From a virus, in IMG/VR virus record IMGVR_UViG_3300044631_002183, positions 32,001-96,000 of that record: a DNA stretch of 64,000 nucleotides; one strand, 5' to 3'. Of the stretch, positions 4,566 to 54,214 are shown piece by piece (positions within the stretch are counted from its first letter, which is position 1; each line of letters begins with the position of its first letter). The notes below the pieces were generated by a model, which was not told the origin of the DNA, ran no database searches, and worked only from the letters and a program-made list of their open reading frames with translations. The position numbers were made by a program, and so were the translations under genes.

Positions 4566-7500
4566 ATGAGTGTAGAAACAGACAATAAGGATTTTATAAC
4601 AACAGCTTTGTCCGCAGTTGGACCTAGCTTGACTCCAGATTTCTCTAAATACACTTATGGATTATGGGTTTCATTTTTCGAGAATCCAAACCATAGCGAG
4701 AATGGATATACCGTACCAAAGCCTTTGGTAGAAGATATAGTAGCTTCAAAATTTGCAGTAACAGGAAAAAGATTCTCTATAATTAATTACGAAGGAGAAG
4801 CCCCGAAGGCTAGATTTTTTTTGACTGAGGGTTTTCTTGGGTTAGATGGTTATGATTATTTAAGAGACTTTGAGATAACAGATAGATTCATATCTGGGTC
4901 TAATCCAAACGTAATAATGCCAGACATGGATTACGCTGGCAAGGTTTATCGTAGATACGAGATTACAGGCTTAACTAAATCAAAATCCACAAACAATGAT
5001 ATCTTAACTGTATCAGGAGAAGACTGGGCGCAGACTAGTATTCCTGTAAGCGCTAACAATACAGACAATATTTATACCTATACAGATTCAGGATACTCAG
5101 GATACAGAAATGAAGTAACTACAAGATATAAATTCTTATATAACGATAGCGGAAACTCTTTGGTGCAAGACTCTTCTATTTTTGAGATTCCTTTTCAATT
5201 AGAAAATCAGTCTTCGTTAAAATATAGAATATCTAGAGCAAGTGAACCGCTTGGTATTTATGATTTTGCAGAATTAACCGCAGATGGCAAGGCGATAATA
5301 GATTATTCTAAGTATAAGGAAGAGGTTTCTGGAACTATAGATGGGCAAATAGTTTACAACTTTGAGCCGATATCCCAGCTTTCTTTCGGATCGGGAGAAT
5401 TCAACGATATACTAGAAAAGAACATAACGAATAGAAAAAAAATATACGATCCATCTTTAACTGGTTTTAGCATATCTAAGAGCAATAATTTATTTAAATT
5501 CGCACTACAATCTACTGGAAATTTCGATGATATTTATAAGGTTGATGTTTCAGTAGAAAGATTTAATCTCAAAGATAAACCAAATATCTCTGGTTATGTA
5601 ATGTCAAGTTATGATATAGGTGATGGACCGGTAACTATATCATTATCTTCGGGGCTAAATGTCTTCCCAAGAGTAAATGAAGACGGATCTCCATTTGGAT
5701 ACGACAATCTTCAAGACTTGATTGACGTAGAACAAATAGCTGAATCTGAAAAATATGCTCAAGATATACAAATACCAGATGCGGGAGATGAGGAAGACGA
5801 AAGTCAATTATCTAAAGCTATTGAAGATAATTTCTCTGCTACAATAAAAGCAATCAATGGCGAATTTGAAGAAGATCCACAAGACAATAGAGATGGAGAA
5901 GCTTGGGAGGTTAGATCTCAAATAGACTCTAATGATGAAGAGTATTTAACGCAGCAGAATAATGAAATCCAATATTACAAGACTGCTTTACCTAACTTTC
6001 CTCTTCCTAAAAAAATTATAACAAAAGACTTCTATTCAAATTATATAAATTCTGGAGAAAGTTATATTGTTACTCCATTAGCTAGTTATGGATTAGATCC
6101 TACATTCACAGCTTGCGGAGATCAATTCGGAGTATTGGGCTATTATATAAATGAAAGCGAAGTCCCCGGGCAAGAGTCTGTTTTTAGAACGGTAGTGAAC
6201 TCTACTTGCGACGGCCTTTACATTGACGCTACTGGATTCTGCAAAGGAGATTCAGCAATATACGATAACAAAAGATATAAAACAGATGGATTAAAAATCC
6301 AAAACGGATTAGTAACCCAAATTACAGAGAGCGGAGTAATATCAAAAGACGCTTTCATAAATCAAGAGTCTTGGTTAAAGGCTATAAATTACTTCTATAC
6401 TAAAAATTATGTAGCTTCTTTTAATGTATATCCATCTCTGCCAGAGGCCAGTTACAACACTCTTTTTTCACAAGCTCTAAGAGAAGTAAACGAGAGAATA
6501 GGCGGACCAGTTGGAAGTAATGACAGTAGTTCTTTTTATTCTAATGGAGCTAGAAATCCAAGAATATTCGTAGAAAGAGAAATCTATACAAATTCTTATA
6601 GAAGAGACGAATCTTTTGAAATAAATCAGGCTATCACAAGTGGTGTCTACACACCTAGCGATGCCGATTTGGCTAATGAAGAAGTAGAAAAGCTATACTG
6701 CGTACACACATACGAACCAAGCGACGAATCTAGTTTTGTCAAAGATAAGCAGGCTTATTTTTATCCAGTTCAAGATTATAAAGAAGATGTGACTTTTAGA
6801 AAATTTTTAGAGACTTCTGCGGCTGGTTTATCATATACTACTGGAGAAAATTTTGGCACTGTTTCATTTATCGATGGAGATGGAGATCCTGATAAGTTAT
6901 TCAGATTGGAATACGTTACTGGTAATGCTTTTAGTTATAATGGCGTTTCCAGTTCTATAGCGTGGTCTGGGCCAGCGACTCCAGCTTCTAACATATCAAT
7001 AATTGATCAAAATACTAAAAACTATTCATATCACTTGTATGGATATAATAATAATTCTGATATTTTGTCTTTCTTAGATAGTAATGTTATTAGCGGCGAC
7101 TCCGTTTCATCTAATTCTTTTTCTAATTTAGCGGTTGTAAAGTTCGTAAAACAAGGTCTAACAGACTCTGTTTTTAGAATAGAAAAAGATGAAGACAATA
7201 CTAAAGTAACGTTATCTTCTCTTAACCTTAGCGTTGCTGATGCTGCCGGGAATTTGTTAGCTCCTTCCAAGGTAAGGGTAAATATTCAAACTTATAATTA
7301 TAAAGTCCAAAGTAATGTTGAGAATCATCAATGGACCGTCTTCAATCAAAATCCAATCAACAATAATATATACGGAGATAGAAAAACAAATAATCTATCT
7401 GAGCCAAGATTCTTTCAAGACGACGCGGAAGATACAAAAGATGTATTGTCTACTTTATTCTTTTTTCCAAATGGGCCTTACACTTCTAAAAATTATGAAG

Positions 7501-10500
7501 GAAAACCAATCTCTACATCTTCTATAAGATCTTTATCTGATGGTCTTTACGAAAACACAATTTCGATAAAAGAAGAAAACGAAAACCCTAAAAATTATGA
7601 GTCAAATTATGTTCTAGAAATAGCTGACAATGGACAATTAGTCAAGCAAAAGCCTTCTAGCTCTGTGCTAAATTCAATGGCGAGATTTAGCGACACAAGA
7701 AGATTAAGAATCACAAAAATCAAATATAATTTCTACACTAAAGATTTAGTTGTAATTGGAGACGCAGGATCACCATATTCTATTAATTTTAATGATGGTT
7801 GGGAATATGATTTGCAGTATAAATTGAAAGCAGGGACTTCCGGATCTTCTGGCAGCTCTGGTACATCTGGAACATCGGGTTCTTCTGGGGGCGGAGCTTC
7901 AGTGGATTGGACTATAATGTCTAAGGAGGGTCCGTTAACTAAGGATACAATTTCTAGCCAATACTCAATTATTTCTCCTTATTATTTCAGTGCGGAAGAC
8001 TTGGAGAGTCCGAATTTCTTGTCGATGGTTGCGTTTAAGACTAATTTGCCGATGTTCTTAGACGATCAAAACTATGAATTTAGAATACTAAAGAGAGAGA
8101 GGCTAGTAGTTTCTTCCGATTCTGCAAATGTAATTAAAAAGACTAATTTCTTGCCTATAAAAGTAGACTGGGACGAAGTGGCTGGATGCGGGTACTACAA
8201 CATCTATCAAAAAGATAGATACAATAACTTAACATTTTTGAGATCTGAACCTTCAGGAGTTAATAGCGTTTCATATGTAGTTCCTGATATAAGCCAAAAA
8301 AATGTAAATCTTGGCGTTTACAATTTTGGAGCAAATGGAAATAACTACTACGACATAATTGTTTCAGGAGTAAAATCAGCAATAGTTAAAGTCGAAGAAA
8401 CTCTTTCTGGCGAATATGGATTTGAAGTAGGAAATTCTGATTCAGACCAAAATAAGATAAGCAAACTATCTCAAGTTACAACCTACACTCCAGTTCTTGC
8501 CTCTGGGACTGCATACAGCCAGTTACTAGATTTCAATAATCCAGAGTCTAAGACTTCAGAATTCAAAATAGATCAAAATTACAATAATTATTACTTCGTC
8601 ACCGACAAGGCTGATGCTATCTTGTCTAATATTCCAAGCTCTTTTGAAGCTTATGTAATTAATACTGGTAATGCAAGTTGCAATGTTGATTCTACGTCAA
8701 TTAGCACCAATCAATATGCCAAGATATCAAATAATGGCGCTGTATCTTCTGCGTCTGCATCGGCATTGCCTTCATCATCTTTAGATTTGGTTGATTTAGA
8801 AGATGGAGATTCTTTATATTTAACTTCTAATGTAACAATATTAAACGCAACTGTAATATCGACTAAAACTCTTAATGTAATTAATGATTCAAGTTCTTCA
8901 ATAACAGTCACATTTGGTTCTACGGAAACAATAGCTGCTAATCAAACTAAGAGTTTAACTTTTAATGACGATGGATCTTCCAAGACAATAGTATTAAACA
9001 AAACCTATTCAAATATCGCAGCTCAAGATGCTGAAATTTATCATCCTAAAGATGGCTTTGTCAACTTCAATCATACTACTGGATCTTTTAGTTCAGCAGA
9101 TGTTTATAGCAATTTACCAGTGTATAATTTTTCACAAGAGACGCTGAAGATCAATAATTTAGTCGTAGCCCCTGACTCTTTCAATTATGTTTCGTGGAAT
9201 GGCTCTGTAGCTTCCAAGGCTCAAAAGAGTTATTTTGATGATTTAAAAATTTATCTTAAAGGTACAGAAACTACAGCGGACAGCATAAAGTTACTCAAAG
9301 ATGATTCAGAAATTATCTTATCTCAATTTGCTACGGCCTCAGGGATTACTAGAGAGTATTTTTTCCTGAAAGATGAATCTATAAATAGAGCCTTAAATAT
9401 CAAAATTACGAATGGTTCTGCCGTAGAAGTTCTTTCCAAGCAAAGACAAGACTTCAAATTGACTGTCAATAGAAATAACGACTCTTCAATTTCTTATTCT
9501 ATAATTTATCCATCTGGGAATCCATTCTTTGAGATTTCAAATTCTACAGAGCAGTTAGTATTGCTAAAAGGAAATCTTATACAAAATATTGATCTAAAGT
9601 CTCTGGATTCTGGATTAAAACAAGGTTCTTTCGTTTATTTTGTAAATAAAAATAGCTCTAACGTTTATTTCTATAGAGATAAGCAGGAAAACATAATCTA
9701 TACATTGGCTGAAAATCAAATAGCTAGAGCCATGTTATCGACTGTAGGATCTACTAGAATTGTAAGACTAGAGATCCTAAATGATGCTTTTAGTCATTTT
9801 TATTTTGACGCCAGTCAATACATAGATTCTCCAATAAATATCCTAGATTTAAATTTCTGCGCCACTCAGATTTCTTTACCTTCCGCTTCGCAGCTACATA
9901 ATAAAGATCTGTTCCTGGTTTGCAGAAATAGATTCATTCCGAATAAAATAAATAAAGAAAAAATTAAAGACGTAAATTCTATAGTTTCTACAGAAGATAA
10001 TCCTTCTACGCTGGAGATAAATGAGATAGGTGATTTGGCAAGTAATTCTATATCTTTAAGAGTATTCGAAAAAACATCAGGAGACGCTTTGCCTACAGTA
10101 GAAAGAACAAGTTTTTCTCAAAGAACATTCTTAGATCCAGAAGACCAAGTTTTAAGTGAAGATACTTCTAGATTTTTTTACATAAGAAATGAAGATGTAG
10201 ACACATTTACAATCAAAGACTTCTATAATAGAAAAAATGACTATAATGGCAAAATCTTCTTGCCAGTCTCGGATAAGTCTTTAGTGGTTCAATCGTTTGA
10301 TTCTGCCGATGGAAACAATCTATTCAGAGCGAGAAAGTCAAGTTCTATAGATTTTGATTATTCTCCAGATGGATATGTTAATGGAAGACTTCAAGTTTCC
10401 GCACCAGACGTTCTAGATTCTAAAATTTATAGCTACCAAAGCGAAGCGGGATCTACGGCGAAAGCCTTTCCGAATGCATTGGCGACAGATCAAATATTGA

Positions 10501-30965: not shown

Positions 30966-32425
30966 AGAACTTCGCCATCACCAGAGTCATCAAGTTCGGG
31001 CCTCAAAGCTTTAGCAGACAAAACATCCTCTAAAGTTCCAGTCTCCTCAACATTAAAGTTATTAATATTGAAGCTTATATAATTAGGAGCGTATTTTATC
31101 TTCTTGCCCTCTTTGATCCTAACTAAATCATGATGACCGGCGGAATCCTTGCCTTGGAAACGCGTGGCCAGAGGAATGAGCTTATGAGACCCAAACTCTG
31201 GTCCATCATCAGCAATCTCTTCGACGCTCTTGCGCCGAAAAATGGCAACGAATGACGCGAACCATTGGAGCCGATCAGATTGAGAAATCGCGCTGCTATC
31301 ATCAACGCCGTTTTCAGCGCTTCGGTTAAGTTGGCAAGCAGTCAAGATTGGAACATTCAATTCTGAGCACAGCTCTTTCAAAGCGTTGACTTTTTCGCCA
31401 ATCAACTGATATTCTTGTTTATTCTTATCAGACTCGCCGGTAAGCTTAATATAATCGTATACAATAACACATTGATTTCCTCTGCCTACCTTAGAGAAAT
31501 ACCACCGCTTCACGATAGATACAACTTCTTCAATAGGTTTACCAGCTACCTGAAGGTGATCTACTTGGTTGCTTAATGACTTAATCTTGCTTTTGCTTTC
31601 TTCGAATTTCTGGAATAGGCTCACATTCTTTTTCCAATTGCCAGTCTCAAGATGCCAAACTGGAATGCCAGTCAAAGAAGATGCTATTCTGAACTTCATG
31701 TCTATAGTAGACATTTCAGTGTCTAGAACCAAAGCTCGACAGCCTTTGTTTATCGTGGTGATCTTGATGGCTAGATCGTTCAAGATCGTTGATTTTCCGT
31801 GCTTTGGGCGGCTTACCCAAGCATAGATATTACCGGGGCGAATACCACCATAAAGACGATTAAAGTTTTGATATGGGCTAATTAAGCCAGTATCTTGGAT
31901 CGGATTATTCCCGCGTTCTTCGATAATTTCTATAACATTAGCAGTTATGTCTTCAGGCTTATTATTTTCAGCAGCATAAACACAAATCTTGCTATTATAA
32001 ATCTTATCTGATTCGTTGATGATTTCTTCGATTGGCTTTTCGGCGCATGAATTAGCAAATTTTTTGATCTCGTCTCCGGTTTGTTCTATCTCGCGGCGGA
32101 TTCTGAGTTTAAGAAGCTCCTTAGCACCTTCAATCAAGCCAGCTTGAGACGTTGGAATAAGGCAAATACTATTGACATAATTGAAAATATCAATAGACTG
32201 ATCTTTAAATGTTATGCCAAGATTCTGGCACTTCTGGGATATCAGAACTTTGTCTATCTGCTCTCCCTTATTAAAGGTCTCTTTAAAGACGCAAAAAATA
32301 GTATAATGAACCTCATTGATGAAATCGCTGTCGCTAATAAAAGCTTCAATGTCAGCAAATGAAGTTGGGAATCTGATTAGTCCAGATAATACGTATTTTT
32401 CTACCTGTAGTGAATATATCGCCAT
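30962..32425 (-). CDS. dnaB: Replicative DNA helicase DnaB
   Basis: N-terminal EKYVLSGL, Walker A RPKHGKST, TEMS, VYDYIKL, CQLNR. Confidence 0.92.
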   Translation of the reverse strand: MAIYSLQVEKYVLSGLIRFPTSFADIEAFISDSDFINEVHYTIFCVFKETFNKGEQIDKVLISQKCQNLGITFKDQSIDIFNYVNSICLIPTSQAGLIEGAKELLKLRIRREIEQTGDEIKKFANSCAEKPIEEIINESDKIYNSKICVYAAENNKPEDITANVIEIIEERGNNPIQDTGLISPYQNFNRLYGGIRPGNIYAWVSRPKHGKSTILNDLAIKITTINKGCRALVLDTEMSTIDMKFRIASSLTGIPVWHLETGNWKKNVSLFQKFEESKSKIKSLSNQVDHLQVAGKPIEEVVSIVKRWYFSKVGRGNQCVIVYDYIKLTGESDKNKQEYQLIGEKVNALKELCSELNVPILTACQLNRSAENGVDDSSAISQSDRLQWFASFVAIFRRKSVEEIADDGPEFGSHKLIPLATRFQGKDSAGHHDLVRIKEGKKIKYAPNYISFNINNFNVEETGTLEDVLSAKALRPELDDSGDGEVL

Positions 32426-52375: not shown

Positions 52376-52675
52376 TTATAGAACCCCATCATCGTCCTCA
52401 GACGTTGATTGCGTCTTTTTAGATGACGCTGGAGCGGCTGTGCCAGCCAATTCCTTTTGCTTATTTTCAGCACGATCAGAAGCGTAAATCCGAAAGTCCG
52501 GAGACTTGTCAGACTTCTTCTCCTTGTTTGAGAAGATAACAATATCAATCTTTCCCTCAAGAGAGGAATTAATATGACCAGTCATATACTTCTGTGATTT
52601 GTCCTTGCTGACTTTCATCCACAAGGCACCCAGTTCGCGGTTGTCCCACTTATTTTCAGTCTTAGTAGCATTCAT
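52376..52675 (-). CDS. DUF736-like small (probably ssDNA-binding) protein
   Basis: LGALW...YMTG...IVIF.N..K...PDFRIY plus acidic tail EDDDGVL. Confidence 0.6.
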   Translation of the reverse strand: MNATKTENKWDNRELGALWMKVSKDKSQKYMTGHINSSLEGKIDIVIFSNKEKKSDKSPDFRIYASDRAENKQKELAGTAAPASSKKTQSTSEDDDGVL

Positions 52676-52707
52676 GCCGACTCATTATCGTCTCTAAAAA
52701 CAAAATG

Positions 52708-53316
52708 TCAAACTAAATCGAAAGAATTTTTACTTACAATTTTATTCTTCAAGAAAGACCTTGCTTTTTCATGAAGATTAATGGCTGTTTGAGTGCTGAT
52801 GTTGAGTTTCTTTGCTATTTTATTCCAAGTAGTTAACTTAGATGAGTTAGAAAAGTATCTAAGCCTATAAACTTCATTTATTCTCTGATCCTTGAAAGAA
52901 GACAGGAGAGAAGAAAGATAGTCATACATTTCTGTGTTTTTATCAGTAGTAGATAAAATATCCTTGTTAACAAAAGTATCTATTCCAAATCCTTCATTTA
53001 AAACATACTTCTTGTTAGAATTTATATAATTCAGGAAATGATACCTAGCGCAATTACAGAACCAAGTTGAAAACTTCGTTTTCTGCTTCGCATCGAAAGA
53101 CTGAACTGCTTTATAAAGAATAAAGTCTTTTTCAGACTTAATCTCTTCTTTGCTCATCCCCATTTTAGTCAAAGCCTGAGAATATCTTCTGGCTATTGAA
53201 AAATAAAAATTATCATAAGAACTAGATAATTTTTCGAAACTGTCGTTGCAGTTAAACTCTTTAATCTTCTTGACTAAAGAAATATCAGAATCTTGTATAG
53301 ATTTTAATTTTGTCAT
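52708..53316 (-). CDS. Phage RNA polymerase sigma factor (sigma70 regions 2 and 4)
   Basis: LYKAVQSFDAKQKTKFSTW (region 2); RLRYF...TWNKIAKKLNISTQTAINLHEKA (region 4 HTH). Confidence 0.8.
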   Translation of the reverse strand: MTKLKSIQDSDISLVKKIKEFNCNDSFEKLSSSYDNFYFSIARRYSQALTKMGMSKEEIKSEKDFILYKAVQSFDAKQKTKFSTWFCNCARYHFLNYINSNKKYVLNEGFGIDTFVNKDILSTTDKNTEMYDYLSSLLSSFKDQRINEVYRLRYFSNSSKLTTWNKIAKKLNISTQTAINLHEKARSFLKNKIVSKNSFDLV

Positions 53317-53771
53317 AAACTTTATCCTTGATGCTCTGTGTTTCCACAGAGACTTTCCTTTCTACCATCGCCTTATAGCTTTTCCTTGAGTTGGCTACGA
53401 AGCAATAGCAGGTCAACTTAGACTCTTATATCTAAGTATTATTCACCCCAAAAGTACCCGAATCAGTCATCGCATCTCCGGCTTTAGCAAGTCCGTTTAG
53501 CTATCGACTACCTTTGGCTATTTCAGTCTGTTGTTTACGCAGTGACTTTTTTTCAGACGCTACCATCGCCTTTTCCTTTGAGAGGAACGAAGTTTCTAGC
53601 AGTTTTAAATAGGACTCATTTACGACGCGGCCTCTCCCGAACGCACGCTGGAATTTCTTCCAATTTCCTATTGTCTTTTGACGGGCTTGTTGATCATTTA
53701 AGATTTTTAAAATAAGGAGTCTATCCTTAAGTGAGCGTGGTTTCGCTCGGCTACCTCTGCACAACAGACTG
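53317..53771 (-). ncRNA. Candidate large structured non-coding RNA or 5' leader of the sigma factor gene
   Basis: Only long intergenic gap in the window. Promoter-like element at 53777-53805; 11-bp long-range stem 53761-71/53524-34; several local hairpins, two with GAAA tetraloops; duplicated 13-nt motif. Confidence 0.65.
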
Positions 53772-53806
53772 CACACAGTTTTAGATGCTTTTTCCGAAAA
53801 GTCAAA

Positions 53807-54214
53807 TCATTTCTTCAATGAATCCGGTGAAGCCTTTGAAGCGATATAAATAAGATTCTTTAAATCTTTCTCAGAAATATTAAGAACATCACATTTTTCA
53901 GAATCGCTTCCAAGAGCTTGACACATATCATTTATTACAGATGCGATCCCAGCAGCAACCAAACCGCTAACTTCGATTGTTTGAGAAAATGACTCAAGAG
54001 GCTTTACCAAGACCCAGTAGTCTTCGCCATTCAAAGAGCAAGAACGAAGCACGTTTGCCTTTTCCATTTCTTTCAATGCGCAAATAAGAGCAGCGTTTTC
54101 AGAGTCCTCATCGTCCGAGACAAGAATAACTTCTTTTCTATTCTTCTTTACATTAAAACAGGTATGATTGTTGAAGTATTCGTTGAGGAGCTGATAACAT
54201 TCAATAATGTTCAT
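53807..54214 (-). CDS. Hypothetical protein
   Basis: 135-aa ATG ORF with its own promoter-like element. Confidence 0.6.
   Translation of the reverse strand: MNIIECYQLLNEYFNNHTCFNVKKNRKEVILVSDDEDSENAALICALKEMEKANVLRSCSLNGEDYWVLVKPLESFSQTIEVSGLVAAGIASVINDMCQALGSDSEKCDVLNISEKDLKNLIYIASKASPDSLKK

Follow-up and report, generated by a model that had tools for sequence, protein, structure and literature searches.

The window analysed here is a stretch of viral DNA of 64,000 nucleotides (nt) taken from IMG/VR record IMGVR_UViG_3300044631_002183 (positions 32,001 to 96,000), and all positions below are those of this 64-kb window. On its minus (-) strand, a 490-nt gap lies between an upstream open reading frame (ORF) of 135 amino acids (aa; 53807-54214, with its stop codon at 53807-53809) and a downstream ORF of 202 aa (52708-53316) that matches Sigma70_r2 in Pfam (E 5.4e-07) and is called the sigma gene below. 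We find that the gap almost certainly holds the gene for a large RNA of complex tertiary fold, a member of a phage-specific family that is absent from Rfam 15. The RNA is encoded on the same - strand as both neighbors, as are all features described here unless stated otherwise. It measures about 438 nt from 53771 to the end of a terminal hairpin at 53334, is matched by an nhmmer profile of the family over 53327-53771, and has a conserved core that ends at 53362 with the second copy of a short repeated sequence, the tag. A first-pass annotation, made by a model that read only the DNA letters, had described this gap as the only long one in a compact genome and as richer in guanine plus cytosine (GC) than its flanks. 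Its GC content is indeed 43.3%, compared with 29.4% in the sigma gene, 37.0% in the upstream ORF and 35.9% in the window; other inter-ORF gaps of about 260-410 nt are present in the window, counting ORFs of at least 150 aa. The same annotation had proposed a multi-domain noncoding RNA or cis-regulatory leader on the - strand that controls or accompanies the sigma gene, with riboswitch, ribozyme and protein-binding scaffold as candidate functions, and this proposal, whichever the function, is supported by conservation, covariation, folding energy and the broken state of the one ORF inside the RNA.

The - strand of the gap folds to -139.5 kcal/mol, compared with -118.9 +/- 5.3 kcal/mol for dinucleotide shuffles (z -3.85), and none of 100 shuffles folds as well. 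The + strand gives a z of -0.28, with 39 of 100 shuffles folding as well, and folding is thus more stable than in shuffled sequence on the - strand only. Relatives of the virus retain the region, and they retain it better than its surroundings: nucleotide identity of the RNA is 71-96% where that of the flanking genes is 62-81%, and the RNA stands above both flanking genes in 9 of 9 relatives (in locus L013, for example, 95.5% versus 77.2% and 76.4%). Many unpaired bases of the RNA are invariant among relatives. An alternative reading is a small protein gene, either as the 91-aa ORF that exists at 53501-53776 inside the RNA or as short ORFs that start from the tag, since the tag of the window's clade has an AUG 7 nt after an AAGGA-like word. 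The 91-aa frame is intact only in the near-identical L001 and L002; the other 13 distinct relatives lack it or have it broken into fragments of 58-70 aa. Having no Pfam match either, it is spurious and offers no protein-level refutation of the RNA. The AUG is found in the tag of the window's superclade and is absent from five other tag classes (L083, L088, L129, L134 and L140), and the tag as a translation start was rejected. We give a small protein gene practically no chance.

Compensatory base changes carry the case for the fold. RNAalifold applied to 15 close relatives predicted 91 pairs, 31 of them with changes on both sides. The 15-sequence structure that was tested had one dubious RNAalifold helix swapped for an inter-domain pseudoknot. 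In this structure 97.6% of cells are paired, compared with 88.8 +/- 0.5% in column shuffles, and 110 cells hold both-side changes, compared with 30.3; in each case 0 of 500 shuffles reach the observed value. Slid controls, in which the partners were moved by 1-3 columns, are 35-50% paired. A wider alignment (A7) holds 45 full-length sequences after removal of those at least 97% alike, with a mean pairwise identity of 59% and a minimum of 40%. Its test set consists of 34 pairs, chosen for being paired in at least 38 of the 45 sequences and for lying in well-aligned helices, together with four CCCG/CGGG pairs; pairs left out include those of P1, P3, P6 and module 2 (named below), where insertions and deletions misalign the clades. 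This selection inflates the percentage paired, which is not independent evidence. The selected pairs hold 272 both-side changes, compared with 97.3 +/- 7.7 in shuffles (0 of 500 reach), and their covariation score is 0.490 versus 0.213, with slid controls 32-47% paired. An unsupervised scan over all column pairs placed the basal helix of the 3' domain, P7, P8 and the inter-domain helix in its top ranks. Covariation is thus strong against both shuffled and slid controls, and it describes an RNA of about 420-440 nt with 16 helices, including one covarying pseudoknot.

The RNA is built of two domains. The 5' domain is closed by P1 and contains P2 to P4, a branch formed by P6, P7 and P8, and module 1; the 3' domain contains a long hairpin, a short hairpin and module 2. 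P1 joins CAGUCUGUUGU (53761-53771) to its perfect complement ACAACAGACUG (53524-53534) and is extended by P1b, in which GCAG (53757-53760) pairs with CUGC (53539-53542), so that the 3' strands jointly cover 53524-53542. Both-side changes occur in 7 of 8 pairs of P1 on alignment A2, and in an alignment-free comparison of 45 sequences the strands bind their own partners at an average of -13.1 kcal/mol versus -8.0 kcal/mol for foreign ones, with 84% of foreign partners weaker on average. The P2 hairpin (53733-53748; GAGCG 53744-53748, loop AAACCA, CGCUC 53733-53737) has 5 pairs with one both-side change; members of the window's superclade have it, those of the L083 clade do not. It is followed by the P3 hairpin (53713-53729), in which UAAGGA (53724-53729) pairs with UCCUUA (53713-53718) and both-side changes are seen in 5 of 6 pairs among 20 sequences, and by the P4 hairpin AUC-UUAAAU-GAU (53693-53704). 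P4 takes the form CUC-GUAA-GAG, with a GNRA loop, in most relatives, and its closing C:G pair is kept in 44 of 45. P6 pairs AAUAGGA (53666-53672) with UCCUAUU (53608-53614) and encloses P7 and P8 (53608-53672 as a whole); 5 of its 7 pairs have both-side changes among 14 distinct sequences. P7 is the hairpin UUGGA-AGAAA-UUCCA (53649-53663) and P8 pairs GCGUG (53644-53648) with CGCGU (53625-53629), with both-side changes on 45 sequences in 4 of 4 and 3 of 5 pairs, respectively.

The two domains are joined by a pseudoknot between AGUCA (53543-53547), which follows an A-run, and UGACU (53465-53469), with the consensus AGUCN/NGACU. Its five pairs are formed in 45, 45, 45, 45 and 39 of 45 sequences. 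The last pair is C-G in 21, A-U in 14 and G-U in 4, and compensations are also found at two other pairs (C-G to U-A in L129 and G-C to A-U in L134). Because this helix crosses P1, the two domains are locked into one fold. A candidate second pseudoknot would join CCCG (53682-53685) to CGGG (53636-53639) in the loop of P8. It is paired in 44-45 of 45 sequences and is unproven because it is nearly invariant; by eye, one divergent member has UCCG with CGGA.

The long hairpin of the 3' domain (53448-53517) has CCAAAGGUA (53509-53517) and UACUUUUGG (53448-53456) at its base, UCGA/UCGG in its middle and CGGACU...AGCCG at its apex, and an internal loop, GAUGCGAUGACUGA, bears the 3' strand of the pseudoknot. 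Both-side changes occur in 10 of 11 of its pairs among the 45 sequences, and it is the top helix of the unsupervised scan. The short hairpin (53416-53437) is ACUUAGA (53431-53437), UAUAAGAG and UCUAAGU (53416-53422); among 14 distinct sequences it has 8 pairs, 2 of them with both-side changes, and 97.3% of cells paired. Beyond the core, the terminal hairpin CUCUGUG-GAAA-CACAGAG (53334-53351) lies 17 nt 5' of the sigma ATG and has no U-run on the - strand; by eye, pairing-preserving changes are seen in L009. On the + strand, this hairpin together with ACTTTCCTTT scores as terminator-like, and no + strand gene ends there.

Several helices were set aside. The RNAalifold helices GGU.GC with GUCAC and GAC with GUC compete with the covarying pseudoknot, the helix GCC with GGC at tag 1 is lost in the L083 clade, and an AUUC/GGGU helix from the unsupervised scan conflicts with P7. 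All stem and promoter coordinates in the first-pass annotation were confirmed on the - strand sequence. For two of its small stems, GCUAU/GUAGC and (as written there) UUCCU/AGGAA, covariation is one-sided or absent. The inter-domain pseudoknot was missing from its list.

Each domain ends in a module that consists of a hairpin with a CUCAA loop, an A-rich linker and a tag of 10-18 nt. Module 1 (53560-53600) comprises GCUAGAAACUU, the hairpin UUCC-UCUCAAA-GGAA (53573-53587), the A-rich linker and tag copy 1, AAGGCGAUGGUAG (53560-53572), and RNAalifold suggests the pairings GCUA/UGGY, CUU/AAG and YC/GG, with one-sided changes, within it. Module 2 (53362-53415) comprises UUGACCUGCUAUUGCUU, the CUCAA-loop hairpin (loop 53386-53390), the linker and tag copy 2, again AAGGCGAUGGUAG (53362-53374). 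Within a genome both tags have the same sequence; between lineages the sequence changes, and it falls into 15 classes. An exact repeat of 10-18 nt joins the modules at homologous sites in 44 of 45 non-redundant sequences, at a spacing of 196-255 nt that is mostly about 198-213 nt and about 198 nt in the window. In the divergent L067 the repeat between modules measures only 8 nt, and 19 further loci share the twin-tag arrangement, for which we know of no close precedent among described RNA families. For this concerted change, an external partner shared by both tags would be the simplest explanation. Words similar to the module's conserved part, CAAAGGAAA, recur on the window's - strand and may be ribosome-binding sites. 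The tag as a genome-wide motif, such as a late promoter or a small-RNA target, was rejected, as it is not enriched elsewhere. Its 11-mer, with at most one mismatch, occurs in the window at the two RNA sites and one other place, and its 7- and 8-mers are not enriched in the rest of the window; a complete 174.5-kb relative has the exact 12-mer nowhere but at the two RNA sites, and its 8 mismatched matches are near the 6 of a control.

Directly upstream of the RNA is a predicted promoter (53777-53805) with TTGACT at 53800-53805, a 17-nt spacer and AAAACT at 53777-53782, which would start transcription near 53771. In agreement with this start, which the first-pass annotation had also predicted, blastn alignments of relatives begin at query positions 36-52, that is, at 53771-53755. 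By its motifs the promoter is host-type, of the sigma-70 class. All 15 aligned relatives retain TTGACT immediately behind the stop codon of the upstream gene, with a variable spacer after it; distant members have TTGACA-17-CATAAT (L146) or elements of the TTGCTT and TTGACG types. A simple consensus promoter scan did not list the window's promoter because its -10 element is weak, and a scan of the window found no promoter-like site on the - strand between tag 2 and the sigma ATG.

The same elements could be read at the level of DNA, as tandem promoters or operators with the tags serving as protein-binding direct repeats, or as an origin-like region. The direct repeats are identical within and different between genomes, a TTGAC word before module 2 is kept in most lineages, and the syntenic upstream gene resembles a winged-helix DNA binder. 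Against this, hundreds of compensatory pair changes and strand-specific G-U pairs show that the fold of an RNA is under selection, only one strand has a significant fold z-score, and the TTGAC word is missing in the L083 clade. A DNA-level element is thereby largely refuted, and we consider it very improbable.

The family was traced from the sigma protein, with which a search gave 25 IMG/VR loci. The gap aligns by blastn over 395-490 nt in 24 of them (74.5-98.8% identity), and the 25th, L019, has a divergent full-length copy of the RNA (nhmmer E 2e-30). A profile search with the sigma alignment reached the L074-L076 clade, in which sigma is 39% identical and the RNA is found by nhmmer at E 4.5e-17. 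In this clade the RNA lies one gene further upstream, before an ORF that resembles deoxynucleoside monophosphate kinases; this P-loop ORF of about 208 aa between RNA and sigma (L074:881-1507, + strand, and relatives) matches Pfam DNMK at E 6.5e-06, just under the cut-off. In the pattern scans, 37 IMG/VR and 55 metagenome contigs matched a 22-base pattern taken from the 5' domain. No metagenome contig matched a 25-base pattern taken from the 3' domain, and neither pattern had a match in 185,579 prokaryote species represented by one genome each. The 92 loci amount to 66 distinct sequences, and the RNA profile matches 66 of 66 (E 1e-21 to 1e-130). A looser pattern gave 22 further IMG/VR loci, 21 of them true members. 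Two IMG/VR pattern matches, L037 and L163, were discarded as chance matches in unrelated sequence. Homologues of the RNA are thus present on at least 62 IMG/VR and 55 metagenome contigs, and the complete 174.5-kb relative has exactly one copy.

Neither blastn in distant mode with the window RNA and an L083-type RNA nor tblastn with sigma had a match in 50,697 phage records. Rfam 15 holds 4227 models, with membership defined as a covariance-model score at or above the gathering score of the family, and includes RNase P, tmRNA, group I and II introns, GOLLD, ROOL, OLE, HEARO, raiA, 6S, T-box, cobalamin and small-ribozyme models. The whole window had 0 matches at the gathering score, which bears out the view of the first-pass annotation that the RNA fits no known family; at E<=10, positions 53100-54000 had 6 chance-level matches, the best at 22.9 bits against a cut-off of 40, and 11 diverse members had 2 irrelevant matches only. 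ARAGORN found no tRNA or tmRNA in the window. A kinship with bacterial RNase P RNA, prompted by short words resembling its conserved regions, was dropped, as no model supports it. No published description of the RNA was found in the literature searched. Fremin et al. 2023 (PMC10690425) list 10,006 candidates from the same viral collection, which may include this RNA, and the main text of that paper does not contain the word 'sigma'; a report on moraphages (PMC12619734) does not evidently concern the window's lineage. The RNA is new relative to Rfam 15 and to this literature.

Parts of the window's stretch are contained in six metatranscriptome runs. Contigs from four of the six were compared with the window and cover sigma, the RNA or the upstream gene. 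Such contigs show presence in RNA libraries, not transcript ends, strand or level, and the parts that they leave uncovered are not evidence. Sigma and the complete RNA are both covered by one lake contig (1823 nt, depth 36), which comes from a relative with about 92% identity.

The family is closely linked to sigma. Of the 48 distinct loci that are informative, 47 have sigma downstream of the RNA (with no gene in between in 28 of the 66 distinct instances and after one to three genes in 19), and 18 others end too soon to tell. A further scan found it downstream in 18 of 18 informative loci. The relative orientation of RNA and sigma is always the same, and in the window 45 nt separate tag 2 from the sigma ATG, with no - strand terminator between RNA and sigma. 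We rank first, with a probability of roughly 0.4, the reading that the RNA is a cis-acting 5' leader that gates the sigma operon, because its linkage to sigma is near-universal, oriented and close, and because some lineages have specific hairpins that use tag 2. Host RNA polymerase would start at the sigma-70-type promoter near 53771, and the transcript would fold into the two locked domains as the 5' leader of the sigma-operon mRNA. The folded body would then serve as a sensor or binding platform, and some factor, protein or RNA, would recognize the tags. The state of tag copy 2, which abuts the start of the operon, would decide downstream expression through an output that depends on the lineage, either a hairpin that hides the Shine-Dalgarno (SD) sequence and AUG or a terminator-like hairpin. 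The outcome would be the timing of the switch from host sigma-70 to phage sigma. Here we infer the cis action, the role of the tags and the existence of a signal from features that are seen directly, namely the RNA, its fold, the position of the promoter, the linkage to sigma and the twin tags.

The lineage-specific hairpins take several forms. In the L034 clade, the tag-2 region and the bases that follow pair with the sigma SD and AUG at -12 to -13 kcal/mol in 4 of the 5 listed members, and at -8.5 kcal/mol in L048. In L134, L140, L105 and L092, a hairpin with tag 2 as its 5' strand precedes the next start codon by less than 40 nt, and in L134, L140 and L105 it is followed by a U-run. The L083 clade has a weak 7-bp hairpin downstream of tag 2, and a lineage-specific downstream hairpin is also found in L099.

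A number of observations weigh against a cis-acting leader. In the window's own clade, the only contact downstream of tag 2 is a 4-bp GAUG/CAUC pairing around the terminal hairpin. Tags pair with the 60 nt downstream at -7.4 kcal/mol in their own genome versus -6.4 kcal/mol in foreign ones, and no family-wide expression platform was found. Family-wide own-versus-foreign pairing tests found no segment of the RNA that covaries with the tag, and hence no alternative pairing on which the proposed switch could be based. Locus L146 has a complete RNA, its own TTGACA-17-CATAAT promoter and both identical tags, and sigma is found neither within 3 kb nor elsewhere in its 14-kb locus. In L088, a tRNA-Gly(GCC) gene (1310-1385, + strand) starts 8 nt after the RNA, with sigma about 1 kb further on, and in L067 a spacer of 357 nt lies between RNA and sigma. 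The evidence from RNA libraries comes from contigs only, which cannot show transcript ends, and carry-over of DNA is possible. Finally, with about 420 nt, pseudoknots and numerous unpaired positions that do not vary, the RNA looks more like a ribozyme or an 'ornate' RNA than like a known leader.

One specific switch was rejected as a general mechanism. In a 1:2/2:3/3:4 attenuator, both tags would compete for UUGACCUGCUAU (segment X2), for which there is no family-wide covariation: own and foreign pairings of tag with X2 are -8.1 versus -7.3 kcal/mol, then -7.7 versus -8.0 kcal/mol, and those with segment X1 are -5.5 versus -5.4 kcal/mol. In the window's clade the X2 pairing is strong, and CUGCUAUUGCU can pair with the tag at -13.8 kcal/mol, again with no family-wide covariation.

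Two established kinds of leader offer partial parallels to a cis-acting RNA. Attenuator-type leaders include the PyrR-binding loops of the Bacillus pyr operon and the T-box leaders, and among the protein-dependent ones are leaders with repeated binding sites. The window RNA resembles riboswitches and attenuators in its place in a 5' leader, its covarying, sensor-like fold and its repeated identical sites, with tag 2 taking part in terminator-like or SD-hiding hairpins in some lineages. It differs in being about two to four times the size of a typical aptamer, in having no family-wide platform or alternative pairing that could be found, and in having one member with no downstream gene. RNA-level control of sigma factors is an established principle: the E. 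coli rpoS mRNA has a long 5' leader whose inhibitory fold is opened by small RNAs with Hfq. The two share a long structured leader before a sigma gene and A-rich tracts, but they are not homologous, the phage RNA is much more strongly conserved and more compactly folded than a leader that does no more than mask a ribosome site, and no small-RNA partner was found in the window or in the complete relative.

We rank second, as a real if tentative possibility, a structured RNA that acts in trans, encoded at the head of the sigma operon and made with or processed from its transcript, which would work as a free RNA or ribonucleoprotein, as a scaffold, as a decoy for a protein or for RNA polymerase, or in the manner of GOLLD and ROOL, with the tags as twin sites for one partner. 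This ranking rests on L146, the tRNA neighbor, the terminator-like ends and the ribozyme-like complexity. L146, where the RNA, promoter and identical tags are retained with no co-directional downstream gene (the RNA stands alone between - strand genes at 6360-8572, and the genes downstream are convergent), is what a free RNA would predict, but it is a single metagenome contig. Terminator-like hairpins at the 3' end in four lineages and the tRNA gene right after the RNA in L088 point the same way, whereas the window's clade has no terminator between RNA and sigma. Conservation above that of neighboring genes, a pseudoknotted two-domain fold and a family confined to phage or metagenome contigs also suit a trans-acting RNA; a purely trans-acting one would have no need to lie close to sigma and in one orientation, as is seen in 47 of 48 informative loci. 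No complement of the tag is present in the window or in the complete 174.5-kb relative genome, which counts against this reading. Action in cis and action in trans are not mutually exclusive. Downstream of the RNA in L146, the - strand ORF at 7604-8572 encodes a PARG-like macro domain (Pfam E 4e-15). The spacer of L067, at about 1140-1500 on the L019 contig, holds a word like CGGAACC.UAACGAAA twice and several hairpin-like stretches, as judged by eye.

Among RNAs that act in trans, GOLLD and ROOL (and also OLE and raiA) belong to the large structured orphan RNAs called 'ornate', several of which come from phages or prophages. The window RNA shares with GOLLD and ROOL a length of more than 400 nt, many conserved helices, pseudoknots, invariant unpaired bases and a place in phage DNA, and one member sits beside a tRNA gene; it is smaller, lacks an Rfam match, is tied to sigma in a fixed orientation and has twin tags that change together. 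6S RNA is a decoy for the sigma-70 holoenzyme and forms a rod of about 180 nt with a central bubble. Like 6S, the window RNA is tied to the choice of sigma, and a phage with its own sigma could profit from blocking the host holoenzyme. Unlike 6S, it is multi-branched, has two domains and has no Rfam match.

The regular spacing of the modules also raises processing. Cleavage by the RNA itself or by an RNase, at or near the CUCAA loops or the tags, would free a fragment of about 200 nt and leave a sigma mRNA with a short 5' end, making the element a new ribozyme or a processing signal. In most members the two near-identical modules do keep a constant distance of 196-213 nt, and the many unpaired bases that do not vary suit such a role. 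Three contigs from three river runs that cover the 5' part of sigma stop, with no loose ends, at 53385, 53385 and 53392, at the CUCAA loop of module 2, with TTGACC-17-CAACTC just upstream (53388-53416). The shared stop weakly suggests processing or an internal start, or it may reflect an assembly break: these contigs come from low-depth (2-4x) assemblies, in which breaks can occur, and the TTGACC-17-CAACTC word would allow an internal start. No contig ends are seen at module 1, and no known ribozyme model matches. On this evidence we think processing improbable.

On a broader and rather speculative view, which we hold to be on balance unlikely, the family is a new class of large riboregulators or ribozymes of uncultured aquatic phages. 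The tags, identical and rapidly co-evolving, would be an address read by a single partner (for example an RNA of host or phage, RNA polymerase or sigma, or a protein that binds RNA) or else two cleavage sites, and the RNA, working as a free molecule as well as in cis, would set the handover from sigma-70 to phage sigma.

Few large RNAs of complex fold are known, and those that are usually perform catalysis, sensing or assembly. The window RNA is a tractable addition, with about 420 nt, a well-determined secondary structure, a proven inter-domain pseudoknot, dozens of diverse natural variants and a clear genetic partner, the phage sigma, which presumably drives a later stage of infection. If the RNA does gate or assist sigma, no earlier case of control at the RNA level would be known for a sigma factor encoded by a phage, and viral transcription programs would have a new means of timing; its twin tags are a ready handle for experiments. 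That such an RNA has no match in 50,697 phage records shows what phage lineages known only from metagenomes hide.

The neighboring genes add some context. The upstream gene (53807-54214) is syntenic, and in the distant L074 clade its homologue also lies 5' of the RNA (33% identity, E 3e-18). A structural model of the 135-aa protein (predicted local distance difference test score, pLDDT, 80.3) has a winged-helix-like N-terminus, with weak matches only, to small viral winged-helix DNA binders and to MecI/BlaI (E 0.03-0.2). The modeled protein could be a regulator of the adjacent promoter. As an RNA-binding partner of the RNA it was rejected, since no RNA-binding fold was found among the model matches, which are weak and to DNA binders only. 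With its SD sequence AAGGA (53325-53329) and ATG (53314-53316), the sigma gene covers 52708-53329. The closest cultured relative of the window's DnaE-type polymerase is about 30% identical at best among the phage records. This polymerase is encoded, together with a DnaB-like helicase, a ribonucleotide reductase, glycosyltransferases and giant proteins resembling tail fibers, at 20771-50816 (- strand) and 1-20510 (+ strand), and the predicted gene content fits a large uncultured tailed phage. The DNA runs that contain the window's stretch are lake-water metagenomes. On the 3' side of sigma, a DUF736-like ORF (52376-52675) is preceded by a promoter-like TTGACA-16-GATAAT (11 of 12 matches; 52684-52711, - strand) that overlaps the final sigma codons, and the DUF736-like gene is also syntenic in the distant L074 clade.

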